From the NCBI GenBank assembly GCA_964463135.1, contig CAYXBA010000003.1, positions 228,012 through 260,011 of the forward strand: 32,000 nucleotides of DNA, in the 5' to 3' direction. A program made the position numbers and the translations under genes. This stretch comes from an uncultured Nitrospiraceae bacterium. Its GTDB lineage: Bacteria; Nitrospirota; Thermodesulfovibrionia; Thermodesulfovibrionales; UBA6898. The first letter of the stretch is position 1, and each line of letters begins with the position of its first letter. Shown in pieces: positions 5,102 through 32,000 of the stretch. The notes beneath the pieces were generated by a model. That model searched no databases and had not been told where the DNA came from. It saw only the letters and a list, made by a program, of their open reading frames with translations.

Positions 5102-5514
5102 TGCTCAATAAGTATAAAGCGACCGTGACGCGCTTCCTGAAGAAAGGGCTCGCGCCATCAGAGATCGCCTTTGCGATCGCACTCGGGAATTTTGTCGGCA
5201 TCCTCCCGCTTGTGGGCCTTCATACGCTCGTGGCAATCGGCCTTGCGCATCTCCTGAGGCTGAACATCATGATCGTATTTCTCGGCACCCAGATATCGAA
5301 CCCGATATCGTTTCCCTTTATTCTTTTCATCAGCGCCCAGATCGGCAGCCTTTTGCTGAGCGGCAGTCTGCTGAATATTCAGTTCACCACTGACCTCGCG
5401 ATCCTGAAGACCTATATCATGCCTACGATCATCGGCGGTGTTATTCTCGGTCTCGCGGTCAGTTCCGTCTCATACGTTCTCACGCTCAAGATCGCCAGGC
5501 GCTTCAGAACGTGA
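5101..5514 (+). CDS. DUF2062-family small membrane protein
   Basis: 137 aa with about 3-4 TM helices. The N-terminal GLAPSEIAFAIALGNFVGILPLVGLHTLVAIGLAHLLRLN..ISNP pattern is typical of DUF2062. TGATG overlap with the upstream gene and GTGA overlap with the downstream gene. Confidence 0.6.
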   Translation: MLNKYKATVTRFLKKGLAPSEIAFAIALGNFVGILPLVGLHTLVAIGLAHLLRLNIMIVFLGTQISNPISFPFILFISAQIGSLLLSGSLLNIQFTTDLAILKTYIMPTIIGGVILGLAVSSVSYVLTLKIARRFRT

Positions 5515-6851
5515 AGGTCCTCCTCGCGTACCCCTTCAGGGAAGACACTTACCGCAAGGTCGGCTTCATCCTCCCGCCCATGGGCATTGCCTATATCGCA
5601 TCCGTACTCAGGAACAACGGGCATGAGGTGAAGATCGTCGATTTCAATGTCACGGATGAAAAGATCGATTACTCCGGGTTTGATATTGTCGGCATCTCTG
5701 CTGACACGAGCAGATACAAGAGCGGTCTTCTGCTTGCGCAGGAGGCAAAGCAGGCAGGCTGCACTGTGGTCATGGGCGGCCCGCATGTCAGCTATAAGGA
5801 TGAAGATGCGCTCAGGACCGGGTTCTGTGACTTTGTTGTGCGCGAGGAAGGCGAACAGACGATGCTCGAACTTGCAGATACCCTCGGCACTGAGCAGGCC
5901 TATGCTGTCAGAGGCATCAGCTATCTGAAGGACGGCGAAATCCAGAGGACTCCCGGCAGGGGGTTCATCGACAATATCGACGACCTCATTCCTGCCCGCG
6001 ACCTGCTGGATATGAAGTCCTACCGCCACCTCGAGATGGGCAAGAGGAAAATGACATCTATTCTTACCAGCAGGGGATGCCCGTTCGGCTGCTCCTTCTG
6101 CTGCTCCACCGAGTTCAGCGGAAGGAAGTGGAGGTCCCGCAGCCCCCTGAAGATCGTGGACGAGATAGAAGACATTGTCACAAACCATGACTTCAACGGC
6201 ATAGCCTTCCTTGACGACAACTTCACCCTCGACCCCAAGCGGGTCATCGCGATCTGCGACGAAATCGTGCGCAGGAATATCGACATCTACTGGTGGTGCT
6301 TTTCACGCGCTGACACGCTCCTGAAGAACGAGGCGATGGTCGCAAAGATGGCTGCAGCAGGCTGCAAGTACATCTTCATCGGCTTTGAGTCGCGCCACCA
6401 GTCAACGCTCGACCAATACAACAAGAGCATCACCGACAGCATGGCAAAGGATGTGACCGAACTCCTGAGAAGATACAATATCTCTGTTCATGCGAGCTTC
6501 ATCATCGGCAACATCGACGAGACACGGGCAATGGTGATGGAAACCGTGCGGTACGCAAAGCAGATCGATCCCCAGGCAGTGCAGTTCACGATCCTTACTC
6601 CCTATCCCGGCACAAGGCTTTTTGACGAGGTGAAGGACCGGATCATTACTGATGACTGGGACCTGTATGACTGTCTGCACTCTGTGGTGCGCACTGACCA
6701 TCTCGGGCAGAAGGAGCTTGAGGCCCTGCTTAAAAAGGCCTATCTGACGTTCTATCTCTCGCCGAGCAAGGTCGCGGCCGGCCTCCTGAGCAGCTTCCGC
6801 GGCAAGGGCATCAAGCTCAGCTCCATACTCAGGATATTCAGGGGCCTCTGA
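5511..6851 (+). CDS. B12-binding-domain radical SAM enzyme (paralog 2)
   Basis: 446 aa with a GTG start. MKVLLAYPF..MGIAYIASVLRNNGHEVKIVD is the B12-type domain. Cluster motif TSRGCPFGCSFCCS, then FLDDNF. Confidence 0.85.
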   Translation: MKVLLAYPFREDTYRKVGFILPPMGIAYIASVLRNNGHEVKIVDFNVTDEKIDYSGFDIVGISADTSRYKSGLLLAQEAKQAGCTVVMGGPHVSYKDEDALRTGFCDFVVREEGEQTMLELADTLGTEQAYAVRGISYLKDGEIQRTPGRGFIDNIDDLIPARDLLDMKSYRHLEMGKRKMTSILTSRGCPFGCSFCCSTEFSGRKWRSRSPLKIVDEIEDIVTNHDFNGIAFLDDNFTLDPKRVIAICDEIVRRNIDIYWWCFSRADTLLKNEAMVAKMAAAGCKYIFIGFESRHQSTLDQYNKSITDSMAKDVTELLRRYNISVHASFIIGNIDETRAMVMETVRYAKQIDPQAVQFTILTPYPGTRLFDEVKDRIITDDWDLYDCLHSVVRTDHLGQKELEALLKKAYLTFYLSPSKVAAGLLSSFRGKGIKLSSILRIFRGL

Positions 6852-8260
6852 TGCGAGTCCTGCTCGTCTCCCCGAACCGTGAGCATCTGCCTGATCCGGT
6901 CTTTCCTCTCGGCCTCTCGTACATTGCATCCGCTCTCAGAAAGCATGATCACGCTGTCAGCATGATCGATCTCTGCTTTTCTGAGGATATGGACAAGGAC
7001 ATTGAAAAGGCTGTCCGCACTTCCCGGCCGGATGTGATCGGCATGTCGCTCAGAAATATCGATGACGTCTGCTACCCGAAGCAGCACTCCTATCTGCAGG
7101 AATATAAGACCACGATCGGATCTCTCAGAAGGTACTCTCAGGCCCCGATCGTTTTAGGCGGTTCCGGCTTTACCATTATGCCTAATGCGTTCATGCAGGA
7201 ACTCGGCGCTGATTTCGGGATCACAGGCGAAGGTGAAAAGGCCTTTCCTGAATTGCTGAAGAAGATAACCTCCCTCGCTCCCTCCCTGGTAAGGAAGGAA
7301 GCTGAAATACGTGGCGCGGCTGCCGGGCATGTCCTCCCTCCTTTCCAAGGCGGGATTGAGGGGGGTAATGATCGCATCATTTCATCCCGCTCGCGGATCA
7401 AGGATCTGGACTGCGTTGTCCCTGACCGGGAACTCTTTGACAGCAGTTCCTATTACCGTCTCGGCGGCATGCTGAATATCCAGACAAAAAGGGGCTGTCC
7501 CTTCAAATGCATCTACTGCACGTATCCCAAAGTGGAGGGCAGGACCGTCAGGATGCGCAGCCCGCAGTCAGTTGCTGATGAAATGGAAGCGATCATAGCA
7601 AATACAGGCGCACGCCACTTCTTCATCGTTGACAGCATCTTCAACTATCCGGTCAGCCATGCAAAGGCGGTCTGCGATGAGATCATCAAACGCGGCCTCG
7701 ATATCCAGTGGTCGTGCTACGCAAATCCTGCTCACATGACAGAGGACCTTGCAGACGCCATGGTCAGGGCCGGCTGCACCGGTGTTGAGTTCGGCACCGA
7801 CTCTCTTGTTGACGAACTGCTCAGGAACATGGGCAAGAGCTTCACCTTCAGCAAGGTAAGGAAGGCATCGCTCATATGTAAGAATGCAGGCCTGAAGTTC
7901 TGCCATTTCATCTTTGCAGGCTCACCGGGAGATACTGATGAGACGATCAAAATGACCCTTGCGCGGCTTGAAGAGATCGCGCCGGATGCTGCGGTGATCA
8001 TGGCAGGGATCAGAATATTCCCCGGCACAGTCCTGGCAGAGCGTGCAAGGCAGGACCTCGGCATCTCGACCATAGGCCTTAAACCGGTCTTCTATCTTTC
8101 AGAAAAACTGACGGATTACGATGCCGTGGCCGAGGCGGTCTCGAAGAAAAAGAACTGGATCATGCCGGGGTATGAGATCAATTTTTATCCGCGCCTCCAG
8201 AAGAAGCTCAGGGAGCACGGCATCAAGGGTTCGCTCTGGGAAGGACTGGGGAAACGGTGA
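6851..8260 (+). CDS. B12-binding-domain radical SAM enzyme (paralog 3), with a 13-codon insertion
   Basis: 469 aa. MRVLLVSPN..LGLSYIASALRKHDHAVSMIDL is the B12-type domain. Cluster motif TKRGCPFKCIYCTYP, then FIVDSIF. It carries the extra segment HVLPPFQGGIEGG relative to paralog 2 (see repeat feature 7333-7365). Confidence 0.85.
   Translation: MRVLLVSPNREHLPDPVFPLGLSYIASALRKHDHAVSMIDLCFSEDMDKDIEKAVRTSRPDVIGMSLRNIDDVCYPKQHSYLQEYKTTIGSLRRYSQAPIVLGGSGFTIMPNAFMQELGADFGITGEGEKAFPELLKKITSLAPSLVRKEAEIRGAAAGHVLPPFQGGIEGGNDRIISSRSRIKDLDCVVPDRELFDSSSYYRLGGMLNIQTKRGCPFKCIYCTYPKVEGRTVRMRSPQSVADEMEAIIANTGARHFFIVDSIFNYPVSHAKAVCDEIIKRGLDIQWSCYANPAHMTEDLADAMVRAGCTGVEFGTDSLVDELLRNMGKSFTFSKVRKASLICKNAGLKFCHFIFAGSPGDTDETIKMTLARLEEIAPDAAVIMAGIRIFPGTVLAERARQDLGISTIGLKPVFYLSEKLTDYDAVAEAVSKKKNWIMPGYEINFYPRLQKKLREHGIKGSLWEGLGKR
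7333..7365 (+). repeat. C-rich/G-rich hairpin-forming element embedded in frame in the radical SAM gene
   Basis: CCTCCCTC (7333-7340) pairs with GAGGGGGG (7358-7365): 8 pairs including one T:G. The loop is 17 nt. The element lies entirely inside the 39 nt (7328-7366) encoding HVLPPFQGGIEGG. That segment has no counterpart in my by-eye alignment with paralog 2. Confidence 0.4.
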
Positions 8261-13873: not shown

Positions 13874-14217
13874 AGCTCGGAAGCCCGCAGGGCCTCCCCT
13901 AAACAGATATCTCAAACCGAAGCATGATTGTCAACATAGCAGCTCAGCAGGCTCTTATGCCTGAAGGTCGGAGATTCCTTGCACATGCAGAAGCAGTAGA
14001 TACTGTCCAGGACCCACGGGATTTCCCTTGCTGCCTGATAGGCAGCTTTCACGCGGGCATCGTTGAATTTTCCAGGATCAAGTGTTGCCCTTGTCTCCCC
14101 TTTCCTGAGTGACTGATCATACGTGCCCGAAAGTTCTTTCTGGGCGCCTTCCGAAACAGCTGCCATCAAGAGAACAGGCAGGATAATTACAGCAAGTATT
14201 GCACTAAGCCATTTCAT
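13810..14217 (-). CDS. PCYCGC-family secreted protein with in-frame TGA at 13912-13914 (candidate selenocysteine, U-x-x-C)
   Basis: The track ORF 13912-14217 ends ...SIYCFCMCKESPTFRHKSLLSCYVDNHASV then TGA. The same frame continues for 33 codons without a stop (DICLGEALRASELYKKGYTVQQIKETVEKEFKR) to TAG 13810-13812. Signal peptide MKWLSAILAVIILPVLLMAA. The CxCxC motif is CFCMC. A hairpin lies 14 nt after the TGA. Confidence 0.6.
13879..13897 (-). promoter_or_regulatory. candidate bacterial SECIS hairpin for TGA 13912-13914
   Basis: Minus-strand RNA GGAGGCCC-UGC-GGGCUUCC forms an 8-bp stem with one G:U pair. That pair would be an A:C mismatch on the other strand. The stem starts 14 nt after the UGA. 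Confidence 0.5.
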
Positions 14218-20412: not shown

Positions 20413-20779
20413 AATTGCACCTCCCTGAATGAGATATCTCTCTTGTTCCCTGAGAGCTAGGAAGCCCTGATTTCATTATACTCCCCAATAGCTTTACCCC
20501 CTAATTGGCCCACCTCAGAGACAACAAATACCACAGCCGGTTCATATTTTCTTCATATCGATCACCTAAACTGTTTACATGAACATAAACATCAGACAAC
20601 CGGCAGGCAGATGGACACTGTTTACCCTGATCCTGGCAGCTGTTAGTATTCTCGGGCTTGCAGGTGCATGGCTGTATGCCGATGCCGTTGTCAGCAGCTG
20701 GACTGCAGCGAAGAGATCTGTTCCTGCAGAGTCCTGTCCGACACCGAACGCTGCGTACACGAAAAAGGAGAGAAAGACC

Positions 20780-21454
20780 ATGACAACCGCGGTTGAGAAA
20801 TCTATGATCCCGCTTATTGACAGGACATTGCCCGCAAAGACGGAGACAGCGACCTTCGGGCTTGGCTGATTCTGGGGGCCTGACTCCCGGTTCGGGAGTA
20901 TCTCAGGAGTGATCAGGACCCGCGTCGGTTACAGCGGCGGGACAAAGCCAAACCCGACCTACAAGAGTCTCGGCGATCATACCGAGACGATAGAGATCGA
21001 TTTTGACCCGACCAAGATCACGTATGAACAGCTGCTGGAGATCTTCTGGAGCAGCCACGATCCGGCAGGATGGTCATGGGCAAAGCAGTACAGGAATGTC
21101 ATCTTTTATCACAACAAGATGCAGAGACAGTCTGCAGAAAGAACACGCGACCGCATCGCTGCGCAGACCGGCAAAAAGGTCCGCACCGATATCGAACCTG
21201 CAGCAACATTCTACCTGGCCGAGGACTATCACCAGAAGTTCAGGCTTCAGCAGGACCCTCTGCTTGCTGCAGAATATGATGCCATCTATCCGGACATAAA
21301 GAGCTTTGTCGATTCTACGGCAGTCAGTCGGGTCAACGGATACCTCGGCGGATACGGCAGTTCCGCCGGACTGAACAGGGAGATCGATGGTCTCGGCCTT
21401 TCAGACGCAGCAAAAAAACACCTGCAAGATATTGTGGCCGGTTCAGGCCGGTGA
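20780..21454 (+). CDS. msrA: peptide-methionine (S)-S-oxide reductase MsrA with TGA (20867-20869) at the catalytic Cys position (candidate selenoprotein)
   Basis: The track splits it into 20579-20869 and 20909-21454, which share one frame. The joined reading is ...TATFGLG-[TGA]-FWGPDSRFGSISGVIRTRVGYSGGTKPNPTYKSLGDHTETIEIDFDP..., i.e. the MsrA GCFWG signature with TGA in place of Cys. I prefer the start at ATG 20780 because of AAGGAG 9 nt upstream. The alternative ATG 20579 would add a TM-like N-terminus (RWTLFTLILAAVSILGLAGAWLY). The start is unresolved. Confidence 0.8.
20883..20899 (+). promoter_or_regulatory. candidate bacterial SECIS hairpin for TGA 20867-20869
   Basis: ACUCCCG-GUU-CGGGAGU is a perfect 7-bp stem starting 13 nt after the UGA. 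The apical region contains G and U residues. Confidence 0.6.
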
Positions 21455-22298: not shown

Positions 22299-23429
22299 TC
22301 ATTGTCTATTCAGGAATTGCTGCACCTGATCTCTGATCGTCAGATGGTCTACAGGGATGTTCGGCACATCCTTATTGCCCGGTAGCGCGAGGGCATGAAT
22401 GAACTTTAACCCTTTTTTATCCGATGACATGGCAGCGATCAACTGCTCACGCGTCGATGCCTTCACGCTATGACCGATGCCGAAGCCGCGTGCTACCAGA
22501 TCGAGGTCAACGCATGAGCCGGTCAGGGTCTTCTGACTGCCTGTTGAACCGTATGAGCTGTTATCGATCGCAAGGATCGTCAGATTTTCTGGTGAACAAT
22601 GGGCAGCGGTCGCCAGCACACCGGGATTCATAAGCAGGCTGCCATCACCATCGATCACCACGACCTCTTTCTTTGAACAGAGACTGATGCCGAGCCCGAT
22701 CGGCGATGCCATGCCCATGCTTCCCAGCATATAGAAATTGGACGGCTGATGCTTCAGCGCATAGAGTTCCTTTGATGGCCAGCCAAGGTTGCTGACAACT
22801 ACCCTGTTCTCGAAAAAAGGTGCGGCAATCTCAAGCAGTTCATAGCGCGTAAACTGCGGGGGCACGATCTCCTGCCGTTTTTCAGGAAGCATGCAGGCTA
22901 TGGGCCGCTGGTCCAGAACTGCAGTGCTTTTTGCTGACGAACCTTCCCATATGGCCGGGCTCAGGAGAAAGGCATGTATCTTGTTCTTCTGATAGACCCG
23001 TTTCAGGCTGCGCGCGATGACAGGAAAATCTTCCCGGGAACTGACGATAGTATGCGAGATGCCTGCCCCTTTCAGGATCTTCGGCAGCCCTTTGCCCATC
23101 GGGAATTGGGCAGCGATCTTCTCCTGATAGATCCCGCGCTGACTCACGAACAATGCAAGCGGCAGTTCATAAAACCCGGTCAGGGACAGAAGCGCATTGA
23201 TCATATTGCCGATCCCTGAGCTCTGGATGAACAGGGCAGGCCGCCTGCCTGCAAGCGCTGCCCCGGCGGCAATGCCGACGCCCTCCTCTTCCCGCGTGAG
23301 AGGAATATGGAAGAATTCCGAGGCCACCATTTCGAGCAGGCTCTTTATCTTCTCGCACGGCAGGGATGCTGTAAAGTCGATGCCTGCTGCCTTGAGTATG
23401 GATATCAGTTCTTCTTCAGGATTCTGCAT
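22299..23429 (-). CDS. fused ThDP-dependent decarboxylase of the sulfopyruvate (ComDE) / phosphonopyruvate decarboxylase family
   Basis: 376 aa. The N-terminal half is ComD-like (AAGIDFTASLPCEKIKSLL, GVGIAAGAALAG). The C-terminal half carries the ThDP motif IDGDGSLLMNPG...ILAIDNSSYGSTG. Sulfo- versus phosphono-specificity cannot be told by eye. The neighbouring gene favours sulfopyruvate. Confidence 0.65.
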   Translation of the reverse strand: MQNPEEELISILKAAGIDFTASLPCEKIKSLLEMVASEFFHIPLTREEEGVGIAAGAALAGRRPALFIQSSGIGNMINALLSLTGFYELPLALFVSQRGIYQEKIAAQFPMGKGLPKILKGAGISHTIVSSREDFPVIARSLKRVYQKNKIHAFLLSPAIWEGSSAKSTAVLDQRPIACMLPEKRQEIVPPQFTRYELLEIAAPFFENRVVVSNLGWPSKELYALKHQPSNFYMLGSMGMASPIGLGISLCSKKEVVVIDGDGSLLMNPGVLATAAHCSPENLTILAIDNSSYGSTGSQKTLTGSCVDLDLVARGFGIGHSVKASTREQLIAAMSSDKKGLKFIHALALPGNKDVPNIPVDHLTIRDQVQQFLNRQ

Positions 23430-24658
23430 AGCAATGCCTCTATCTCCATATCCGTGATCTTCTTTGAAACAAACTCGGGTTCTACATTATACGTCTTTTT
23501 CTCCCTGCCGAGCGTAACTTCGCCGCCGCCGGTGATATTCAACAGGACCGTATCCGCACTGCTCACCGCCTTCTTCTGCACAGCCTGTCTCAGTGCACCG
23601 ACAGCAACACCCGCAGCAGCAACAATATCAATGCCCTCAAGGTTGCTGAACAGTTCCATGGATTCAAAGACTTCCCGGTTCGTAACGCCGTACATTGCAC
23701 CGCCGCAGGCATGCATCGCATCGAAGACGCCCCCCTTAACAGCGTATGCAGGATAACGGGTCGAAAGCACGCGCGTCGTTATCTGGCCGATCAGTTCAGG
23801 CCGCAGGTCTTCAGAAAAAAGCTCCCTGCTGCTTTTTTCCCATGCCTTTACCATCGGCGCGAACGGCAGGTTCTGCGCAAGATGGAGCTTCGGAAGGCGG
23901 CTGCCGAACCGGCCGTCACGCAGGAATCTTTCTGACATCTCCCACACGCCGACGCCTCCTGTGCCGCTGCCGACAGCCTGAAAATAATGGTCTGGCAGTT
24001 TCCTGATCTTTGAGACCGCCTCAAGGATCGTCGAGCCGAGCCCGTCCCGCTTTGCAATATTCTTCACCCCGCCCTCGAACGGGAAGCCCGAGATCGCCGC
24101 TATCCTCCTCGCCACGTCAATGGCATCGGAATAATCGCCGTCACCCACAGCAAGCGTAGGCACCATGGAGGAGCTTTCGAGATACCACATCTCTGTCAGG
24201 CACATCCGGGGCACAACGATCACCACAGGAAAACCTGAGACAACAGAAAGATGGGCAAAGGCGCGGGCAGTGTTCCCTGCCGATGCAACGATCAGCCCCT
24301 CGACCCTGTTCTCAGCCGCATTCTGCAGCACGATCGCTGCTTCAAACTCTTTGAAGGTGCAGGTCTGGAGCAGTGCTCCCCTTTCCGGCCAGAAGCCGTT
24401 AAAGGCGATATAGAGATCTTCAAGACCGAGGTGCCGCGCAAGCCACTCGGACTTGTACACCAGCGTGCCCGGCTGCTCAAAGGTCGGTGTATGCACAGGC
24501 AGCCAGTTGAACTTCCAGATGCCGCTGCCGCAGTCGTCACGAAACGCGTCTTTATATTTCGTGACCAGCAGGGAATCCGGGCAGTGCTCGCAGAACGCAC
24601 AATAGACATCGGTCAGTTCCTTGCCGCATCCTCTGCAGGTTATCGTAAAATGACTCAT
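23405..24658 (-). CDS. threonine-synthase-fold PLP enzyme, cysteate-synthase-like
   Basis: 417 aa. N-terminal 4-Cys ribbon CRGCG..CAFCEHC. PLP fold-type II core (TCTFKEFEA lysine context, VASAGNTARAFA, QAVGSGTGG). The cysteate synthase call rests on adjacency to the decarboxylase and on knowledge of the Methanosarcinales CoM route. A plain threonine synthase is not excluded. Confidence 0.5.
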   Translation of the reverse strand: MSHFTITCRGCGKELTDVYCAFCEHCPDSLLVTKYKDAFRDDCGSGIWKFNWLPVHTPTFEQPGTLVYKSEWLARHLGLEDLYIAFNGFWPERGALLQTCTFKEFEAAIVLQNAAENRVEGLIVASAGNTARAFAHLSVVSGFPVVIVVPRMCLTEMWYLESSSMVPTLAVGDGDYSDAIDVARRIAAISGFPFEGGVKNIAKRDGLGSTILEAVSKIRKLPDHYFQAVGSGTGGVGVWEMSERFLRDGRFGSRLPKLHLAQNLPFAPMVKAWEKSSRELFSEDLRPELIGQITTRVLSTRYPAYAVKGGVFDAMHACGGAMYGVTNREVFESMELFSNLEGIDIVAAAGVAVGALRQAVQKKAVSSADTVLLNITGGGEVTLGREKKTYNVEPEFVSKKITDMEIEALLCRILKKN

Positions 24659-25884
24659 TTGCCAACCCTCTCCACATGCTGTGCGAAAAGCTCCATGATG
24701 TCAACGATCGGGATCTTTTTGTCGTGGTCCTGCATTGCCTCGTTCACCTTGCCGTAGCAGGCCGGGCAGCTGAGGATCAGTTTGTCCGCCTTTTTGGCAA
24801 CAGCCTCATCGATCGCAAGCCTGCCGATGGCAATGGCATTTTCATGAAACACCTTCCTGACAGCGCCGCCTGCGCCGCAGCAGCGGGACTCGCTGCCATG
24901 CCGGTCGAACTCCAGCAGTTCCAGCCCCGGTATGGACCTGAGCACCTGCCTCGGCTCTTCAATGACACCAACGCCCCGGCTCAGATAGCAGGGGTCGTGA
25001 TAGATGATACGCTCCTTCAATTCTTTCTTTACCGTGATCTTCCGCTGCTGTAAAGCATCTGCAACAAACTGGGTCATATGCCGGATCTTGAACGGCAGTT
25101 CCTGTCCATAAAAGGCCGGCCAGTCCCTGGTCATGATATTCACACAGCAGGGACAGGAGCAGACAAGCATCTTCACGCCTTTCGCCTTGTACGCATTAAC
25201 GAGACGCTTTGTGAGGTCCTCAAGCATATCGTGCTGACCTGAAATGAAGAGCGGGAATCCGCAGCATACCTCCTCTTCCTCAGTAAGCATGGTGAACGGG
25301 TCTCCGATCGCATCAAGCACCAGCACATCCCCTCTCACCATCGGCTTTGCGCCGTACACGCCGGAGCAGCCGGCATAATAGGCGATCTCCGATCTCTCTG
25401 CCACCTTCACCTGTTCCGGGAACCACGGCTTGAAACGTTCTTCGACCGGGAAGTTATACGGATTGCCGCTCTTTTTTATCGCAGCAGGCATGTTCGTCAA
25501 TATCTCATAATCCACAAGACCCCGGTCGAACATCTCTTTTCTGAGATAGGGCCAGAGCCGCTGCGTAAAGATGCCGACAGCACATTTCTGGCCGCAGGCA
25601 CCGCAGGTCGTGCATTCAAAGACCGCCTTCGTGAAATCTTCGAGTACCGCTCTGTCGATCTCCTTTGGATTGAAGAAGCGTGCCTTCAGCCCCCCGGTTG
25701 CCTTGATGAATTCCTTGAATACCCTGATCTTCTCCGGCGTTGATATGGAAGGCCTGTGGGTAACTTCCTGGACAGGACAGTGCTGGAGGCACTCTCCGCA
25801 CTGGGTGCAGGCATCCAGTTCCAGCACCTGCATGGGTGTCAGGTTGTTGGTGAACGACCCTTTCTTATCTTTCATGGATGACAT
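24655..25884 (-). CDS. HdrD/DsrK-like Fe-S protein with CCG domains
   Basis: 409 aa. Two ferredoxin motifs (CTQCGECLQHCP, CTTCGACGQKC). Two Cys-rich CCG-type repeats (VCCGFPL with CSCPCC; RCCGAGG with SCPACY). ATGA overlap with the downstream PLP enzyme gene. Confidence 0.8.
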   Translation of the reverse strand: MSSMKDKKGSFTNNLTPMQVLELDACTQCGECLQHCPVQEVTHRPSISTPEKIRVFKEFIKATGGLKARFFNPKEIDRAVLEDFTKAVFECTTCGACGQKCAVGIFTQRLWPYLRKEMFDRGLVDYEILTNMPAAIKKSGNPYNFPVEERFKPWFPEQVKVAERSEIAYYAGCSGVYGAKPMVRGDVLVLDAIGDPFTMLTEEEEVCCGFPLFISGQHDMLEDLTKRLVNAYKAKGVKMLVCSCPCCVNIMTRDWPAFYGQELPFKIRHMTQFVADALQQRKITVKKELKERIIYHDPCYLSRGVGVIEEPRQVLRSIPGLELLEFDRHGSESRCCGAGGAVRKVFHENAIAIGRLAIDEAVAKKADKLILSCPACYGKVNEAMQDHDKKIPIVDIMELFAQHVERVGK

Positions 25885-26551
25885 ATTTCAGCTCCTCCCT
25901 TCTCCTGTTCGCTTCCAGATTCACAAAAGGCGCCGCGATAATATGTGTCGGAAGAAAAGGAAGGAGAAGGAGAAACAACCCCAAGTGAAAAAGAAACAGC
26001 ATGCTGTCCGGCAGGGGCTGGGGACTCAGGCCAAAGATGCCGAGAGAGAACTGCTTCACGCCGAGCACATCCGGCCGGTAAAACATTCTCATCGCCAGTC
26101 CGACAGAGCCGGTTAATAACAGGATGCCTGAAATAATATAGTTATAGGAAGAAGTATACCTGTCCTTTTTCTGCACTGTTCTCAAGGCTATGAGATATAC
26201 CAGGGAAAGGGGAAGCAGATATCCTGCGACGAGGCCGACCGGCTGCAGAAAGATCATGCAGTCAGGCAGCCGGGGGAAGAAAAATCTCATATGGCGAAGC
26301 GCCACCCAAAAAAGGGACATATGAAATACCCAGGACCCTGCCCAGAGGGCCCTGCTGGAACTGAAGATCCTCCGGAAAAAAAGAATGTCGAGGACAGTGG
26401 CGATATAGACCGAAGCAGGCACTCTGCGGAGAAAGACCGGATAGTGGCTTGCAGAGGCTGAAGCCCGGAGCGCCTGAATGCCCTGCCAGGCAAAGCGGAC
26501 CAGAAAATAGAGATAGGCGGCAATGGCAGCAAAAAAAAAGATCAATGACAT
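25865..26551 (-). CDS. NarI/DsrM/HdrE-like membrane dihaem cytochrome b
   Basis: 228 aa with about 5 TM helices. Paired His contexts WVFHMSLFWVALRH and LFLFHLGLF..LPTH resemble NarI-family haem ligation. Its 3' end overlaps the HdrD-like start by 20 nt. Confidence 0.6.
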   Translation of the reverse strand: MSLIFFFAAIAAYLYFLVRFAWQGIQALRASASASHYPVFLRRVPASVYIATVLDILFFRRIFSSSRALWAGSWVFHMSLFWVALRHMRFFFPRLPDCMIFLQPVGLVAGYLLPLSLVYLIALRTVQKKDRYTSSYNYIISGILLLTGSVGLAMRMFYRPDVLGVKQFSLGIFGLSPQPLPDSMLFLFHLGLFLLLLPFLPTHIIAAPFVNLEANRRREELKYVIHER

Positions 26552-26577: not shown

Positions 26578-27054
26578 TTATGCCCCATCAGGCATATAGC
26601 CTATCCTGAGACATCCCCAGTGACGGCCCTTGACCGCAATCGGCATCGCCATATCCATTGCAAGTTCACCGCCGGCAGCCGCCGGCCTCCGGAACGGCTG
26701 CGCCAGCAACCGGGTGGTCTTTGAGCCGCTGAGAGATACCGGATCGGTCATTTTGACCAAGGCCCTTGCAGGCATGATATGGGTCGGCATGTACCCGTTC
26801 CTGTCCATCGCAACCACATACAGCAGACGTCTGTCCTTCTGTGCCCACCGTTTCAGGACAGGCAGCACGTCCGCATCGAAGAACCTGTTTGAACGGGCTT
26901 TGAACTTGCCCTCTTCTGCAGTCTTACTATAGTTTTCATCAAAGAGGGAATCCATGTCGATCCTGGACTGCCGCACCGCCTCTTCAAGCAGGGCGGCAAA
27001 CTCGACGGCCAGGGTCTTAAGATACGCCTCCATCTCGGTAAATATCATAGACAT
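26578..27054 (-). CDS. cytoplasmic Cache/PAS-like domain protein (function unknown)
   Basis: 158 aa with no signal peptide or TM helix. LLYVVAMDRNGYMPTHIMP resembles the core strand-turn of Cache/PDC-type ligand-binding domains. RBS GGGAGGG upstream. Confidence 0.45.
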   Translation of the reverse strand: MSMIFTEMEAYLKTLAVEFAALLEEAVRQSRIDMDSLFDENYSKTAEEGKFKARSNRFFDADVLPVLKRWAQKDRRLLYVVAMDRNGYMPTHIMPARALVKMTDPVSLSGSKTTRLLAQPFRRPAAAGGELAMDMAMPIAVKGRHWGCLRIGYMPDGA

Positions 27055-27169: not shown

Positions 27170-27502
27170 CTAATCCTTCTCCTCGATGAACGTCATGCCT
27201 ACCGGCCGCGGCAGACATGCCCCGGCTTCCACTTCGATCGCCTTCAGGATGGCCGACGGCACAGGACATGCCGCATGTTTCAGGTTCTTTGAGGCAGAAC
27301 GGTACACCGGGTTATGCAGTATTACCGAGAACGGGGCCCTGAACTCGAGGAACGCGATATCCTCTTCCATCTTCTTTACCATCCCGCATTCCGTCTCGAG
27401 ACTGATATGAAAGTTTCTGTCCTTGTCGCGCCGGACTCTCACAACGACCGTAAACCCGCATACCCCTGAGTTGACCTGAAGCGTAGTCAATGCACCTCCC
27501 AT
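27170..27502 (-). CDS. small conserved-looking Cys protein (unknown function)
   Basis: The track ORF starts at GTG 27583, immediately after a hairpin. I prefer ATG 27502 (MGGALTTLQVNSGVCGF...). Cys contexts: SGVCGF, LETECGM, KHAACPVPSAILKAIEVEAGACLP. Confidence 0.45.
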   Translation of the reverse strand: MGGALTTLQVNSGVCGFTVVVRVRRDKDRNFHISLETECGMVKKMEEDIAFLEFRAPFSVILHNPVYRSASKNLKHAACPVPSAILKAIEVEAGACLPRPVGMTFIEEKD

Positions 27503-27584
27503 GCTCTTCTGCGGGCCACGTGATGCAAGGGGGAGGGGATTTCCTGGAGGGGAAATGGTCCCTTGCATCCGCATGGCCCGCACA

Positions 27585-27618: not shown

Positions 27619-29610
27619 TCAGCCTTTAATGGATGCCGCTATCGGCGCCTTCTGCTCTTCAAGCAAAGCCTTCAGATTCGGGAACTTGTCCTTCATATGC
27701 GGAATATGCATGGCCATCATAAATTCCTTTTCGAAGGCAGGCTCTGTAGCGATCTCGACAAACTCGACCCAGCGGGCGCGCTCATCAGCCTCGATGCGTT
27801 TGCCCCTGTTCAGCAGGGTCATGCGTGAACCGTCACCCGCCGCGTTGCCGACCACAACGACCTTCTCTATCGGCACATCAGGGAAAAGACCCAGGGCAAG
27901 CGAGGCCTCGCGGTCTATGTGGCTGCCGAATGCACCGGCAAGCTCAACACGGTCAAGCTTGGTGACGCCCATCTTCTGCATCATCAGCTTCACACCGGCA
28001 TAGAGAGCGCCCTTTGCCAGCTGGAGCGCCCTGACATCTCCCTGCGTCACGGTAATGTCCTGATTGATCGAGGTCTGGTCTGCCCATGCAAGGACGTATT
28101 CAGGCTTGCCTTCCTCGTCCTTGCGTATCCGATTCGTATTTGCGTCAGTCACGAACTTGCCGGTCTTGTCGATGATACCTGCCTTGAACATCTCTGCGAT
28201 CACGTCAATGATCGCTGATCCGCAGATGCCCTTTGCATCGATCTTGCCCTCGATATGCGTATGCCAGTCAGCCTTGCCGATCACCTTGTACTGGGGCTCC
28301 TTGGTGGCAGGGTCGATCTGCACCTTCTCGATCGCACCCGGTGCGGCACGCATGCCGAACTTGATCTGCGCTCCTTCGAACGCTGGACCGGTGGCACAGG
28401 AGGTCGAGCATACCCTGTCCTTGTTGCCGAGCAGGAGCTCTCCATTAGTGCCGATATCAATGATCAGTACCATGTCGTCCTGGAAATACTGTTCCCGGGC
28501 GATCAGCACGCCGACATTATCGGCGCCGACAAATCCTGCCTCGATCGGCAGCACATGGATAAACGAACCGGGGTTGATCTTAAGCCCCAGATCGCGGGCC
28601 TTGATATCGAGCGACTTCTGTACCGCAGGAATGAACGGCGAGCGGCCGATATAGACCGGGTTCAGACCGAGGAAGATATGGTGCATTGCCGTATTGAAAA
28701 CTATCGTCAGGTCATCGATCGCAAAGCCGGGGTTCGGCCCGTCCTTTCTGACCTCGCTCACGACCTTATTTATGATCTCATTCAGGCCGGTGATGATCGC
28801 ATCCTGCATGGTCTTCAGGCCTTCAGGGTTTGACATGGCATACGTGATCCGGGACATGACATCTTCGCCGTACGGGACCTGGGGGTTCATCATCGATTCG
28901 GTATTGATCACCTTGCCGGTCGACAGGTCGCAGAGATAACCGACACAGGTGGTCGTCCCGACATCAACTGCCAGACCGTAGCAGACATCCACATGACCGG
29001 CCTCGACCTTCACGATCTCCTTGTCCTGCCAGACCGTGGCCGTTATGGTCCATTCTCCCTGGCGCAGCGCGTCCTGCAGCCCGAGCAGAACCTCGAAATC
29101 GAACTTCAGGTCCTTCAGGCCATAGGTCTCTTCAAGCGCCCTGATCACCCGCTCATAATCGCCGGTCGTCATGTCATGCAGGGTCGGCGGTGTCAGCGTA
29201 AGCGGATATTTTTTGACTGCAGGATCGAGCGCAATGGTCAGTTCACTGGCAGCTTTTCTGACCACCTGCTTTCCTGCCCGCGAACGCTCAGGAACAAAGA
29301 CCTTCAGGTCGCCATGGATGTGGCATGAACAGGCCAGCCGCACGCCCGGCCCGTCCTCAGGCTTGATATGCTTCAGTTCGTCAGCACCAGCCTCGGGCGG
29401 GATGATATGGGACATGCCGGACTCGAGATTGTCCTTTTCGAAATATCCCTCCTCAATCCGCACCTTGCATTTTCCGCATACTTTTTTATCACCGCAGAGG
29501 GCTTCGAGGTCAACGCCCAGAAGCTGTGCAGCCTTGAGGATCGTGGTCCCCTCTTCTATTTCTCCCCGCCTGCCTGCAGGCTGGAAAATTACCTTGAATT
29601 TACGACTCAT
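27619..29610 (-). CDS. RACo-type reductive activator of corrinoid proteins (2Fe-2S ferredoxin domain + ASKHA ATPase)
   Basis: 663 aa. The N-terminal plant-type ferredoxin motif is CGDKKVCGKC...RLACSC. The large C-terminal ASKHA/DUF4445-like body contains LAVDVGTTTC, IIDIGTNGE, CATGPAFEG and NAAGDG. Strong RBS AAGGAGGA. Confidence 0.85.
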   Translation of the reverse strand: MSRKFKVIFQPAGRRGEIEEGTTILKAAQLLGVDLEALCGDKKVCGKCKVRIEEGYFEKDNLESGMSHIIPPEAGADELKHIKPEDGPGVRLACSCHIHGDLKVFVPERSRAGKQVVRKAASELTIALDPAVKKYPLTLTPPTLHDMTTGDYERVIRALEETYGLKDLKFDFEVLLGLQDALRQGEWTITATVWQDKEIVKVEAGHVDVCYGLAVDVGTTTCVGYLCDLSTGKVINTESMMNPQVPYGEDVMSRITYAMSNPEGLKTMQDAIITGLNEIINKVVSEVRKDGPNPGFAIDDLTIVFNTAMHHIFLGLNPVYIGRSPFIPAVQKSLDIKARDLGLKINPGSFIHVLPIEAGFVGADNVGVLIAREQYFQDDMVLIIDIGTNGELLLGNKDRVCSTSCATGPAFEGAQIKFGMRAAPGAIEKVQIDPATKEPQYKVIGKADWHTHIEGKIDAKGICGSAIIDVIAEMFKAGIIDKTGKFVTDANTNRIRKDEEGKPEYVLAWADQTSINQDITVTQGDVRALQLAKGALYAGVKLMMQKMGVTKLDRVELAGAFGSHIDREASLALGLFPDVPIEKVVVVGNAAGDGSRMTLLNRGKRIEADERARWVEFVEIATEPAFEKEFMMAMHIPHMKDKFPNLKALLEEQKAPIAASIKG

Positions 29611-29764: not shown

Positions 29765-29792
29765 TACTGCCTAATGCTTACTGCCTACTGCT
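29765..29792. repeat. four tandem heptamers spanning a stop codon
   Basis: TACTGCC TAATGCT TACTGCC TACTGCT (29765-29792). On the minus-strand mRNA this reads AGCAGUA GGCAGUA AGCAUUA GGCAGUA. The QueG-like stop (29778-29780) lies inside the array. Confidence 0.5.
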
Positions 29793-30440
29793 CCCGACTC
29801 TCTCTGTCTTCTTCCTGGTCCGCGAATACGGGCAGACCGTAACGCAGAATCCGCAGTTCGGCTTGCCGTCAAGGGCCTGGCGGCTGCTCTTGAGCGCCGC
29901 ACACTTTTCGTATGCAACGAGCTTCAGCCGGGGATTGCGTATGGACCAGTGGCCGCCTTTGACCGCTCCTGAAGGGCAGTGCGTAACACATAGGACACAG
30001 TCTCCACACTCCGACTCCCTCACCGGCTCGTCCGCATCAAGAGGGGCATTGGTCAGCACCGTTGCCCAGCAGAGCCGCGATCCATACTGCCGGTTGATCA
30101 GAAGCCCGTTCTTGCCGACCCATCCGAGACCGGAGCAGGTCGCTGCCGTCTTATGGCAGAAGAGCTTGTACAGCCTGGTTATCAGCTTGTCCTTCTGCCG
30201 GTCCGAGTCAGGGGGGATCGAAAGGTTCCGATACCCCCGTGCACTCAGCCATGCCACGGTCAGCCCCTGCAGTCGTGCCAGAAGACGGATCGTTTCCCTG
30301 TTCAGGTTCCTGTTCACGGCAATCGCGATGCCGCGGTTCAGATGGACGATCTCTTTTGACAGGGCCTCGGTCACATCGCCGACACCGACCAGCGTTGCTC
30401 CTTCGCTCTTCAGGTACTGCTTGAGCGGGTCTGCATTCAC
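29778..30440 (-). CDS. short QueG/reductive-dehalogenase-like 2x[4Fe-4S] protein
   Basis: 220 aa. GLGWVGKNGLLINRQYGSRLCWATVLTNAPL matches the QueG-type core. Cluster motifs CGDCVLCVTHCP and CGFCVTVCPY. It is much shorter than full-length epoxyqueuosine reductase. Confidence 0.6.
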   Translation of the reverse strand: MNADPLKQYLKSEGATLVGVGDVTEALSKEIVHLNRGIAIAVNRNLNRETIRLLARLQGLTVAWLSARGYRNLSIPPDSDRQKDKLITRLYKLFCHKTAATCSGLGWVGKNGLLINRQYGSRLCWATVLTNAPLDADEPVRESECGDCVLCVTHCPSGAVKGGHWSIRNPRLKLVAYEKCAALKSSRQALDGKPNCGFCVTVCPYSRTRKKTERVGSSRQ

Positions 30441-30443
30441 CGG

Positions 30444-31130
30444 TTACTGCTTTGCAGCTTTTTCATCCCTCAGCTTCTTCAGGAACGCAACCATCTTGAT
30501 CGCCTCTTTCAGTGCGTTGCTGGCGTCTTCAGCATACCCGTCAGCACCCCACTTGTCTGCGAGGTCCTTGGATGTGGGGGCTCCGCCGATCATGATCATG
30601 CAGTTGGGGTTCTTGGCCTTGATCTTTTCGATGACGGTCGGCATGCCGACCATGGATGTGGTCATCATGGCAGACAGGCAGACCAGGTCAGAGTCTGTCT
30701 TGAGCTGCTCATCCACGAACTTGTCCAGGGGCACGTCGCGGCCGAGGTCATAGACATTAAAGCCCGCGACATCGAACATCATCTTGACGAGGTTCTTGCC
30801 GATATCATGGACATCGCCTTCGACCGTGCCGATAACGACCGAGCCCTTCAGGCCGAGGTCCATCTGCTTGCAGTGCGGCTTCAGTATGTCGAGTCCTGCG
30901 TACAGGGCGTCAGCACACATCAGGATCTCGGGAACAAAATATTCCTGTGCCTCGAAAAGCCTGCCGACCTCTTCCATGCCGGAGACGAGGCCGTCGAAGA
31001 TCGCCTCGTTCGCATCAAGGCCTGCTTCAAGGGCCTCGTTCGCGCCTTCCCTACATGCGTCCTCGTCATACTGGATAACGCCGTTCCTCAACTTCTCAAG
31101 GATCTCTTTCTTTCTCGCTTCATCTGCCAT
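30444..31130 (-). CDS. corrinoid (cobalamin-binding) methyl-carrier protein, MtaC/MtbC-like
   Basis: 228 aa. An N-terminal helical cap is followed by a B12-binding Rossmann domain with GDVHDIGKN (DxHxxG), LSAMMTT and MIGGAP. Confidence 0.9.
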   Translation of the reverse strand: MADEARKKEILEKLRNGVIQYDEDACREGANEALEAGLDANEAIFDGLVSGMEEVGRLFEAQEYFVPEILMCADALYAGLDILKPHCKQMDLGLKGSVVIGTVEGDVHDIGKNLVKMMFDVAGFNVYDLGRDVPLDKFVDEQLKTDSDLVCLSAMMTTSMVGMPTVIEKIKAKNPNCMIMIGGAPTSKDLADKWGADGYAEDASNALKEAIKMVAFLKKLRDEKAAKQ

Positions 31131-32000
31131 TATTTTTTACCTCCATATGAGATCGTTTCTTCCATCATTGCCTTCATATTCTGGGGCGGCACAGTCGGCC
31201 AGATATCGCAGCCCGGCCATACTGCACTGACACCGTCGTCGATGCATTTCCTGACAGCCTGGCGCACTACGTCCTCGCTTCCCGAGACCAGCACATTGTA
31301 CGCATCCATGTTGCCGAAGATAAGGGCATCAGGCCCGAGTTTCTTCCTTGACTCTGCAACATCGTTCTTCTGCTCGACGCTGATCGCCGTAGGTCCTGCC
31401 TCCATCATCGACGTCACGATATCGTTCGTCTTTCCGCAGATATGGAGCACGGAATAGACAGATATCCCCTTCATCACCTTCTGGAGCGGCGGCAGGATGA
31501 GGCTCTTGAACACCCGAGGGCTGAGCACATCGCTCGTTGCGCCCATCTCCCGCACGGTTATGAAATCCACACCTGCCTTCTCGTATTCCTTTGCCGTAAG
31601 GATAATGGCATCTGCGCAGAGATCGAGCAGCTTGGCGACCTTGTCCGCCTTCTTGAACGAAAGCTTCAGCAGGTCGTTCAGCTCCATGATCTGGCCGGCC
31701 AGGGTAAAGGGGCCGAGCACATACGAGCCGACGACAACATCGTTGCCTATATCGGCCTTCAGAAGCCTGATCGCCTCGCGCATCAGCGGGATCCTTCCCT
31801 TCTCGGAAAAGCCGTCAGGCAGCTTGATGGTATCCATCTCCGCCTCGTTATGGATGAGCTTTTCCTTGATCGTGGGGTACAGGATGCCCTCTGCCTGCGG
31901 GTACACATTGATGACGCAGCCCATTGCCTCTGCCTCAACACAGAGGTCGACCGGTACTACGCCGCATTCATACCCGAACAGCTTGTACGTGGTTGCAGCG
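31130..32000 (-). CDS. URO-D-family methylcobamide methyltransferase (MtaA/MtbA/CmuA-like MT2); 5' end outside window
   Basis: The track starts it at Met 31924, but the frame stays open to the window edge (...YKLFGYECGVVPVDLCVEAEAMGCVINVYPQ). Zn-site context LHICGKT and later WPGCDIWP. Its stop shares one nt with the corrinoid protein start (TAATG). Confidence 0.8.
   Translation of the reverse strand, partial: AATTYKLFGYECGVVPVDLCVEAEAMGCVINVYPQAEGILYPTIKEKLIHNEAEMDTIKLPDGFSEKGRIPLMREAIRLLKADIGNDVVVGSYVLGPFTLAGQIMELNDLLKLSFKKADKVAKLLDLCADAIILTAKEYEKAGVDFITVREMGATSDVLSPRVFKSLILPPLQKVMKGISVYSVLHICGKTNDIVTSMMEAGPTAISVEQKNDVAESRKKLGPDALIFGNMDAYNVLVSGSEDVVRQAVRKCIDDGVSAVWPGCDIWPTVPPQNMKAMMEETISYGGKK

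Follow-up and report, generated by a model that had tools for sequence, protein, structure and literature searches.

What does a bacterium make with two genes that are otherwise found side by side in archaea? This question was raised by a stretch of 32,000 nucleotides from an uncultured Nitrospiraceae bacterium (assembly GCA_964463135.1, contig CAYXBA010000003.1, positions 228,012 to 260,011 of the forward strand; the whole stretch is called the window below), in which a gene for cysteate synthase (CS) overlaps one for a fused sulfopyruvate decarboxylase (ComDE). The pair closes a conserved gene cluster at its 3' end, and other genes of this cluster encode look-alikes of the enzymes with which methanogens use coenzyme M (CoM); this combination suggests an undescribed bacterial use of CoM. 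Judged from sequence and gene order, there is about an even chance that the pair leads to CoM or to a closely similar sulfonate thiol, serving the methyl-transfer and thiol/disulfide enzymes of the same block. The two genes in question are as follows:

23405..24658, minus strand: cysteate synthase, 417 aa, a pyridoxal phosphate enzyme with the threonine-synthase fold and an N-terminal Cys-rich ribbon

22299..23429, minus strand: fused sulfopyruvate decarboxylase ComDE (ComD and ComE domains), 376 aa, dependent on thiamine diphosphate (ThDP)

Both open reading frames (ORFs), their coordinates, strand and 25-nt overlap (23405..23429) had been given in a first-pass annotation of the sequence, and were reproduced exactly. 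At family level, the assignment of the 417-aa protein as CS was secure. The protein had the PALP fold (PF00291, 107.7 bits, Pfam) and scored 450.5 bits against the cysteate synthase equivalog TIGR03844 (EC 2.5.1.76; cut-off, 324.9), whereas it reached at most 82 bits with any threonine synthase (ThrC) model, for which cut-offs were 167 to 421 (top ThrC score 81.7, cut-off 303). The closest PDB sequence was a deposited cysteate synthase (9K3C/9K3O; 305 bits, E 6.6e-90, residues 4-399), compared with 47 bits for the top ThrC structure (2ZSJ). The identity proposed at first was thus upheld, as was the description of a threonine-synthase-fold protein with an N-terminal Cys ribbon: the N-terminus read C8-x2-C11...C20-x2-C23-x2-C26, and in an alignment of 23 diverse family members C8 was invariant and C11 and C23 were at least 90% conserved. 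The first-pass annotation had also proposed a comparison of active-site residues with characterized cysteate and threonine synthases. K103 (TFKE), S126-A-G-N-T130, G230-S-G-T-G-G, R204, Q227 and every other family-invariant column were retained in the window protein, including the conserved loop around S126 (SAGNTARAF), and the protein was nearer to the solved cysteate synthase than to solved ThrC. By sequence identity, 9K3C is a Bacteroidota-type CS, sharing 63% of its residues with an Odoribacter locus, 46.5% with Methanosarcina CS and 41% with the window CS. The family of the window CS takes in the methanogen enzyme as well as the sulfonolipid type of Bacteroidota, each of them about 41-47% identical to the window protein. 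The predicted reaction is the formation of cysteate and phosphate from phosphoserine and sulfite.

The 376-aa protein was assigned with the same security, at family level, as a fused ComDE, predicted to convert sulfopyruvate to sulfoacetaldehyde and CO2. It contained TPP_enzyme_N and TPP_enzyme_C domains (Pfam) and the ThDP motif GDGSLLMNPG...ILAIDNSSY (GDG...NN). The model of the alpha subunit ComD was passed (TIGR03845; 184.8, cut-off 147.95, residues 5-161), in agreement with the two-domain ThDP decarboxylase that had been described at first, and the score against the model of the beta subunit ComE (TIGR03846) was 214.2, 7 bits under the cut-off of 221.5; the Methanosarcina orthologue reached 247. 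The folds of both proteins are shared with other enzymes, and an ordinary threonine synthase beside a phosphonopyruvate decarboxylase (Ppd) of phosphonate biosynthesis was therefore weighed as well. ComDE had a strong but sub-threshold score against the Ppd model (TIGR03297; 203.4, 109 bits under the cut-off of 312.5), and its nearest solved ThDP structures are annotated as 'putative phosphonopyruvate decarboxylase' (9IZ3). It passed the ComD model while falling this far short of the Ppd model, and no phosphoenolpyruvate (PEP) mutase was identified among the scanned ORFs of the window or the genes of three annotated related loci. Together with the CS and ThrC scores given above, this makes such a mis-assignment extremely improbable, and it was rejected on the model and structure-sequence scores (TIGR03844, ThrC and 9K3C).

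The distribution of the pair was examined by scanning a CS alignment against one genome per GTDB species. The best 80 loci comprised 20 Nitrospirota loci (one of them, L020, labelled only as 'bacterium'), 21 loci from other bacteria (Spirochaetota, Cyanobacteria, Aminicenantes, Moduliflexus and Bacteroidales) and archaeal loci. CS and ComDE overlapped by 25 or 28 nt in 17/17 Nitrospirota loci, with CS identities to the window of 61-100%, so that the overlap is not a matter of chance. ComDE followed CS in all Nitrospirota genome loci with sequence past CS, except for L013, and directly followed it in 29 archaeal loci, including methanogens, anaerobic methanotrophs (ANME), Methanoperedens, one Hydrothermarchaeota and two Promethearchaeota. 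Among the best 80 loci, adjacent CS and ComDE genes outside Nitrospirota were confined to archaea (0/21 in the other bacteria).

In class II methanogens, CS forms cysteate from phosphoserine and sulfite, a canonical aspartate aminotransferase converts it to sulfopyruvate, and ComDE yields sulfoacetaldehyde, which is reductively thiolated to CoM (PMC9457059). The corresponding genes of M. acetivorans are MA3297 (cs), MA3298 (comDE) and MA3299 (MMP16) (PMC11844431/PMC12068725), and MA3297-MA3298 rely on a canonical aspartate aminotransferase encoded elsewhere (PMC9457059, PMC12068725). A CS-ComDE pair without an aminotransferase is the canonical 'type 2' arrangement of methanogens for CoM, and no aminotransferase was seen between the two genes in the 29 archaeal loci. 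Its absence from the window, which had been singled out as notable in the first-pass annotation, is therefore the rule rather than an oddity. The accompanying proposal, that the pair and a housekeeping aminotransferase would make sulfoacetaldehyde from phosphoserine and sulfite, was supported, as were both enzyme identities.

The window genes resembled the type-2 pathway of Methanosarcinales and Methanomicrobiales in the two enzyme families, their order and adjacency, and the lack of a clustered aminotransferase; CS was 43-47% and ComDE 40-50% identical to the archaeal proteins. A locus of Methanosarcina sp. DH2 (L036) had the same trio of CS, ComDE and MMP16 as M. acetivorans. The window differed from these loci in its bacterial host, in the 25-28-nt overlap of genes that are separated in archaea, and in the HdrDE-like and corrinoid methyltransferase genes upstream, which no archaeal locus had in its vicinity. 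The CS and HdrD trees mentioned here and below are plain neighbour-joining trees without support values and serve as rough guides. In the CS tree, the Nitrospirota sequences formed their own clade with a Hydrothermarchaeota sequence as nearest neighbour, apart from the other bacteria and the main archaeal clades. This Hydrothermarchaeota locus (L029) carried the closest non-Nitrospirota relatives of the window genes (47% and 50% identity). Together with two Promethearchaeota loci (L051 and L057), it has CS-ComDE pairs in archaea not known as methanogens, which hints that CoM-type chemistry extends beyond metabolism based on methyl-CoM reductase (MCR) in archaea too.

Directly upstream of CS, an HdrD/HdrE-like pair was present, as had been noted at first:

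24655..25884, minus strand: HdrD-like iron-sulfur protein, 409 aa, with two ferredoxin motifs and two complete CCG motifs

25865..26551, minus strand: HdrE/NarI-like membrane dihaem cytochrome b, with four conserved His residues and hydrophobic stretches

HdrD was recognized by two [4Fe-4S] ferredoxin motifs and two CX31-39CCX33-38CXXC (CCG) motifs. The window protein, which matched the Pfam families CCG (twice) and Fer4_8, contained ferredoxin motifs of the type CX2CX2CX3C at C26/29/32/36 and C91/94/97/101, a first CCG motif at C173...C207C208...C242xC244xC246C247 and a second at C299...C334C335...C373xxC376. Its stop codon overlapped the CS start by 4 nt, and such an overlap was seen in several loci. 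The HdrE-like gene overlapped the HdrD-like gene by 20 nt and encoded four hydrophobic stretches (five overlapping windows); His77, His87, His189 and His203, which lie within hydrophobic segments, were at least 90% conserved in 19 orthologues, and the orthologue in L005 had a weak match to Nitrate_red_gam. The first-pass annotation had described this module as being of DsrMK/HdrDE type, and the DsrMK part of that label did not hold. The HdrD-like protein scored 82.4 bits against DsrK (cut-off 400), and the HdrE-like protein scored weakly, 52.3 bits, against DsrM (cut-off 300). The top NCBIfam match of the former was TfrB, the thiol-oxidizing subunit of thiol:fumarate reductase (176.7 bits). 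The scanned window ORFs and the annotated related clusters revealed no dsrJOP, dsrC or dsrAB, and the window likewise showed neither dsr nor apr genes. With its two CCG motifs, the module was thus rejected as DsrMK. A sequence search of the PDB, which returned only distant CCG proteins (9OJN, HdrB) for the HdrD-like protein and nothing for the HdrE-like protein, did not separate HdrD from DsrK.

The module resembles the HdrDE heterodisulfide reductase in its two ferredoxin and two CCG motifs and in the overlapping gene for a dihaem cytochrome b, a likeness of motifs rather than of directly compared archaeal HdrD sequences. Unlike in HdrDE, the electron carrier would be menaquinone instead of methanophenazine, and close orthologues of the window module also occur without CS.

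Upstream of this module, the cluster continued with genes for methyl transfer and corrinoid activation and with two small proteins:

31130..32000, minus strand: MtaA-type (URO-D family) zinc methyltransferase, 5' end beyond the window, frame open to base 31999

30444..31130, minus strand: corrinoid (B12-binding) methyl-carrier protein of the TIGR02370 type, with the DxHxxG motif GDVHDIGKN

29778..30440, minus strand: 220-aa protein with two [4Fe-4S] clusters (Fer4_16), akin to the ferredoxin region of QueG and reductive dehalogenases (RDH)

27619..29610, minus strand: RACo-type reductive activase of corrinoid proteins (RACo/Fer2 domains), with an N-terminal 2Fe-2S domain

27170..27583, minus strand: DUF6951 small Cys/His protein (PF22263, 94.5 bits)

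26578..27054, minus strand: variable 158-aa protein without a family match, between DUF6951 and the HdrE-like gene

The MtaA-like protein was assessed through its full-length orthologue in locus L003, which is 95% identical to the partial copy in the window. This orthologue passed the model NF004889 'methylcobalamin:coenzyme M methyltransferase' (255.8, cut-off 244), scored 228.9 against TIGR01463 (cut-off 235.4) and aligned over its whole length to M. mazei MtaA (PDB 4AY7, E 3.4e-46). The motifs LHICG and PGC (PGCD), which we take to be the zinc-ligand motifs (H-x-C...C) of MtaA, aligned with the same residues of 4AY7 and were invariant in both URO-D paralogues of the cluster. The MtaA-like gene overlapped the corrinoid protein gene by 1 nt. 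The corrinoid protein scored 204.5 bits against TIGR02370, just under the cut-off of 215.3, and had MtbC/MtgC-like matches. The activase was recognized by RACo_C_ter (320 bits), Raco_middle (175), RACo_linker (82) and Fer2 (30), and the 220-aa iron-sulfur protein, which was present in most orthologous clusters, matched the QueG and RDH models partially and below their cut-offs. In orthologous clusters, at a position outside the window, a homologue of MtrH was encoded that passed the MtrH-family model (318.7, cut-off 287) and remained far under that of MtgA.

For each of the three catalytic functions of Mtr, the methanogen complex, the block thus has a soluble counterpart, together with a look-alike of HdrDE and the start of CoM biosynthesis. 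The URO-D zinc methyltransferase, corrinoid protein, MtrH-family pterin methyltransferase and RACo recall the MtaABC/MtsAB systems of methanogens as well as the bacterial MtgABC/O-demethylase systems with RACo/RamA. Unlike here, MtaABC and MtsAB are not known to share one operon with MtrH-like soluble enzymes, hdrDE and cs-comDE. The known bacterial three-component corrinoid systems pass the methyl group to tetrahydrofolate (THF), and to our knowledge, also from the literature searched, none is linked to CoM biosynthesis or Hdr genes.

Gene order was established from three long contigs with precomputed Pfam annotation and from tblastn searches of the window proteins against all loci. The upstream half of the cluster consists of an optional URO-D paralogue b, a CMD/AhpD-like gene, the MtrH-like gene, URO-D paralogue a (the MtaA-like gene) and the genes for the corrinoid protein and the protein with two [4Fe-4S] clusters; the downstream half consists of RACo, DUF6951, a variable gene (MCP-like in some loci), the HdrE-like and HdrD-like genes, CS and, at the 3' end, ComDE. 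The 10-13 genes are all co-directional and partly translationally coupled. The window covers the block from the MtaA-like gene to ComDE, and the optional second URO-D, CMD and MtrH-like genes would lie beyond its end. The full order was found in all 16 genome-derived Nitrospirota loci that reached far enough upstream, and three more ended inside the MtrH gene. The cluster was present in about 20 species-level genomes and in dozens of metagenome contigs, and the same gene order was kept in L003-L024 (59-86% CS identity), with flanking genes that differed among loci. A second scan centred on the HdrD-like protein gave 80 metagenome loci (64-94% identity), 49 of which were informative, having at least 700 nt downstream of HdrD. 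CS directly followed HdrD in 38 of these 49, and ComDE then followed wherever the contig continued, which bears out the first-pass view that the module and the pair belong together.

The position between DUF6951 and HdrE was variable. The 158-aa protein of the window was missing from many orthologous clusters, and a 513-aa protein of the methyl-accepting chemotaxis type (MCP) held its place in L003 and L006; the 158-aa ORF was 72% identical by tblastn to L003 from position 7622, in the C-terminal part of the 513-aa MCPsignal gene (L003:6539-8080).

The CoM-type consumers encoded in the cluster, namely the MtaA-like and MtrH-family proteins and the HdrD-like protein with its dihaem cytochrome b, point to CoM. 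The first-pass annotation, which took sulfoacetaldehyde as the end product, had contained neither this pointer nor the Nitrospirota host and the 10-13-gene cluster with MtaA-type methyltransferases. The sequences show the family assignments, synteny and taxonomic distribution, whereas CoM as the product, the direction in which methyl groups move and what the Hdr-like module acts on are inferred. In the proposed route, CS would form cysteate from phosphoserine and sulfite with release of phosphate; an aspartate-type housekeeping aminotransferase encoded elsewhere would link this step to ComDE, as in methanogens, and ComDE would release CO2 to give sulfoacetaldehyde. For the thiolation of the latter to CoM, three routes are conceivable: a non-enzymatic reaction with sulfide, a COG1900/L-ASST enzyme encoded elsewhere in the genome, or proteins of the cluster. 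The thiol would then act as methyl acceptor or donor of the MtaA-type enzymes. The corrinoid protein and the MtrH homologue would connect these enzymes to a pterin (THF) for the exchange of methyl groups, and the HdrDE-like complex would link the quinone pool to the couple of thiol and disulfide. When M. acetivorans is starved of CoM, its CoM ABC transporter genes ssuA and ssuC are induced along with cs, comDE and hdrABC (PMC12068725). The Nitrospirota clusters bring together physically the functional set that is co-induced there.

Several points weigh against CoM. The evidence for the function of the cluster is genomic throughout. The MtaA-like orthologue of L003 stayed under the cut-offs of the MtaA equivalog (244.7/400) and of MtbA (170.3/600), and not all members of the MtaA family are specific for CoM, since CmuA and MtoA-type proteins use other partners. 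Neither MCR nor another known consumer of methyl-CoM was found in the window, and CoM-S-S-CoB, the mixed disulfide of CoM and coenzyme B, is unlikely to be the literal substrate of the HdrDE-like complex. In 11/49 informative metagenome loci, the HdrD orthologue (67-74% identical) was not followed by CS; these loci (L103, L104, L110, L098 and seven others) had no ComDE or methyltransferase genes, and their HdrD sequences were interspersed with CS-linked ones in the neighbour-joining tree. The HdrDE-like module is therefore not tied exclusively to the pair, and exclusivity to CS was ruled out. MMPL-type transporter genes were neighbours of the CS-less module in the two scanned loci L103 and L110, and a LolA-like gene in L110.

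A further point of this kind concerns the last step of CoM biosynthesis. The MMP16 protein of Methanosarcina (ComF, COG1900d; L036, 611 bits against TIGR03287) matched 16 archaeal loci in tblastn searches but no Nitrospirota locus (≤10 kb) and not the window, so that this step has no local gene and strict membership in the archaeal module is weakened. An MMP16 deletion mutant of M. acetivorans is a CoM auxotroph only without sulfide; as back-up, either L-ASST, a COG1900 enzyme, or a reaction between sulfide and sulfoacetaldehyde that needs no catalyst has been proposed (PMC12068725). Because MMP16 is dispensable in M. acetivorans when sulfide is present, its absence is not fatal to a CoM product.

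Cysteate and sulfoacetaldehyde may instead be made for another product, for example a solute (isethionate, taurine or sulfoacetate) or the head group of a sulfonolipid, with the neighbouring Hdr and methyltransferase genes being an inherited order without shared function. We regard this as rather unlikely. CS genes without ComDE are widespread in Bacteroidales/Odoribacter, Spirochaetota, Cyanobacteria and Aminicenantes, and the solved CS 9K3C is of the type of Bacteroidota, a phylum in which cysteate feeds sulfonolipids (PMC11211663). The cluster has no CoM synthase gene, and the window also contains radical SAM genes of the lipid type besides two genes for fatty-acid synthases. However, although the capnine/sulfobacin CS represented by 9K3C belongs to the same family (41% identity over its full length), ComDE is not needed for sulfonolipids, in the biosynthesis of which cysteate is condensed with acyl chains rather than transaminated and decarboxylated, and the CS genes of other bacteria are not adjacent to ComDE, as the count of 0/21 indicates. 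The linkage of the Nitrospirota genes, with overlapping start and stop codons, persists through 60-90% sequence divergence while the flanks change. A sub-clade of four loci (L097, L106, L114 and L116) retains HdrD-CS-ComDE even though no methyltransferase-module genes were detected in the available upstream sequence. Moreover, no gene for sulfoacetaldehyde reductase, cysteate decarboxylase or an acyltransferase was seen in the annotated clusters.

For the HdrDE-like complex itself, three roles fit the sequence data: it may reduce a CoM disulfide with quinol, provide electrons for the thiolation of sulfoacetaldehyde, or oxidize sulfane sulfur to sulfite for CS in the manner of sHdr. The second and third would make the module, perhaps with DUF6951, a biosynthetic helper, which is compatible with CoM as the product and competes only with the first role; this too appears unlikely to us. 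HdrD is the gene most tightly coupled to CS (4-nt overlap, CS following in 38/49 loci), and no MMP16 lies nearby. In L020, which has no HdrED genes, DUF6951 directly precedes CS-ComDE. The structure model of DUF6951 resembles the sulfur acceptors IscU, SufU and CsdE, and three Cys and one His (C15, C39, C79 and H76) are invariant. The AlphaFold2 model had a pLDDT of 91, and all 19 top PDB matches were IscU, SufU or CsdE, although these fold matches were weak (E 4e-3 to 0.3, TM score ~0.5). DUF6951, the true start of which is probably the Met at 27502, is limited to the Nitrospirota clade of the window (182 matches), and a homologue search returned this clade alone, with no independent genomic context. 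It is found in most orthologous clusters but not all, being undetected in L005, and on the basis of its model it is a candidate sulfur-relay or Fe-S partner of HdrD-CS-ComDE, a lead rather than a result.

The supply of sulfite by an sHdr-like activity comes near the first-pass idea that the organism handles sulfite through this module, and finds slight support in a locus from a Bacteroidales metagenome-assembled genome (L083:6400-11176). There, genes for a flavoprotein of the pyridine-nucleotide-disulfide oxidoreductase type, a small ferredoxin and a 655-aa Fe-S protein with CCG domains lie directly upstream of, and overlap, a cysteate synthase gene without ComDE, which is an independent association of Hdr-like genes with CS. 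It is a single distant locus, however, with a CCG protein that shares only 22% identity with HdrD. A membrane complex linked to quinone would be unusual in cofactor biosynthesis, a host reducing sulfite or sulfate would already have sulfite (although no dsr or apr genes lie in the window), and the 11 HdrD orthologues without CS count against a helper role as well.

Transport genes adjoined some of the clusters. In L013 (7319-9899), a complete NMT1/Ssu-type ABC transporter (binding protein, permease and ATPase) was encoded between HdrD and CS, and ComDE was missing; genes for NMT1-family binding proteins lay just 3' of ComDE in L005, in about 10 metagenome loci and in the Hydrothermarchaeota locus L029. 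These genes suggest uptake of a sulfonate, possibly CoM, as an alternative to synthesis. Such NMT1/Tau-type transporters would also suit a catabolic pathway, in which imported cysteate or sulfolactate is converted through sulfopyruvate to sulfoacetaldehyde and sulfite is freed for respiration. ComDE homologues act in bacterial sulfolactate degradation, and relatives of the host bear the names Thermodesulfovibrio and Ca. Sulfobium, lineages that include sulfite or sulfate reducers. Cysteate synthase, on the other hand, is a synthetic beta-replacement enzyme and does not desulfonate, and no Xsc, IslAB, SuyAB, CuyA or sulfoacetaldehyde reductase was found in any cluster inspected. The CS family members of solved or characterized function are biosynthetic (PMC9457059), and catabolism of organosulfonates is very unlikely as the purpose of the cluster.

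Returning to CoM, a more detailed scheme can be offered as a possibility, which as a whole is less likely than not. Anaerobic Thermodesulfovibrionia would make CoM by the archaeal phosphoserine route and use it without MCR; a soluble Mtr-like corrinoid system, composed of the MtrH homologue, the corrinoid protein and the MtaA-type enzymes, would move methyl groups between THF and CoM; and the quinone-linked HdrDE-like complex would act on the CoM disulfide, or else, jointly with the IscU-like DUF6951, would take the place of MMP16 or provide sulfite. CoM is known from methane- and alkane-metabolizing archaea and from a few aerobic alkene-oxidizing bacteria, which make it by an unrelated route. 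The route of Xanthobacter autotrophicus Py2 (ComA, XcbB1, XcbC1, XcbD1 and XcbE1) would give the same cofactor in a bacterium, but it is PEP-dependent and bypasses cysteate, sulfopyruvate and sulfoacetaldehyde (PMC9457059). Its enzymes and chemistry differ from those considered here, and it serves aerobic alkene/epoxide metabolism, in contrast to an anaerobic lineage and methyl transfer in the present case.

The enzymes and the CS-ComDE pairing were already known. What appears to be new is that bacteria carry them, that they belong to a cluster of 10-13 genes, and that anaerobic bacteria would, by implication, use a CoM-type cofactor independently of MCR: no paper describing a CS-ComDE/methyltransferase/Hdr cluster in Nitrospirota was found in the literature searched, which left subscription journals mostly outside. 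If CoM is indeed the product, a CoM-dependent metabolism would be recognized for the first time in anaerobic bacteria, adding a third context to those known for the cofactor; the genes for CS, ComDE, MtaA, MtrH and HdrDE in metagenomes would no longer be markers of methanogens. A widespread group of subsurface and wetland bacteria would have a new thiol cofactor system, and a bacterial system would be at hand in which to study the source of sulfite for CoM and the thiolation of sulfoacetaldehyde without MMP16. If the product is not CoM, the cluster would still tie sulfonate synthesis to an Hdr-type enzyme and to methyl transfer by corrinoids, in a tightly conserved and unexplained way.

The host belongs to the bacterial phylum Nitrospirota (Thermodesulfovibrionia). 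The gene content of the window was bacterial, including LolA, two FabF-like proteins, a GGDEF protein, CopA and a two-CW/c-di-GMP protein. Among the 120 closest homologues of CS and ComDE (63-100% identity), those with names were from Nitrospirae/Nitrospirota, Thermodesulfovibrionales and Ca. Sulfobium mesophilum, with the sole exception of one CS labelled Acidobacteriota; depositor names of relatives also included Thermodesulfovibrio. Scans of the window for tRNA genes and Rfam families were empty, and predicted promoter and terminator sites were no more numerous than in shuffled sequence, so that no operon boundaries were drawn from them.

Elsewhere in the window, a lipid-type gene cluster (806..8260, plus strand) contained LolA, two FabF-like ketoacyl-ACP synthases and three B12-binding radical SAM genes, one of which passed the ladderane-type model 'lipid biosynthesis B12-binding/radical SAM' (TIGR04072; 368 vs 360 bits). 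B12/radical SAM genes were also found downstream in L003. The gene for methionine sulfoxide reductase A (MsrA; 20579..21454, plus strand) had an in-frame TGA at 20867-20869, exactly at the position of the catalytic Cys (…ATFGLG-TGA-FWGPD…), and its C-terminal part matched the Pfam family 'Selenoprotein MsrA, helical domain'. The TGA at this position and the selenoprotein domain argue for one MsrA rather than two ORFs, and the split gene probably encodes a single selenocysteine-containing protein. A small ORF (13912..14217, minus strand) scored 76.6 bits against the model 'CYCXC family (seleno)protein', under the cut-off of 90, and together with MsrA it suggests that the organism uses selenocysteine.

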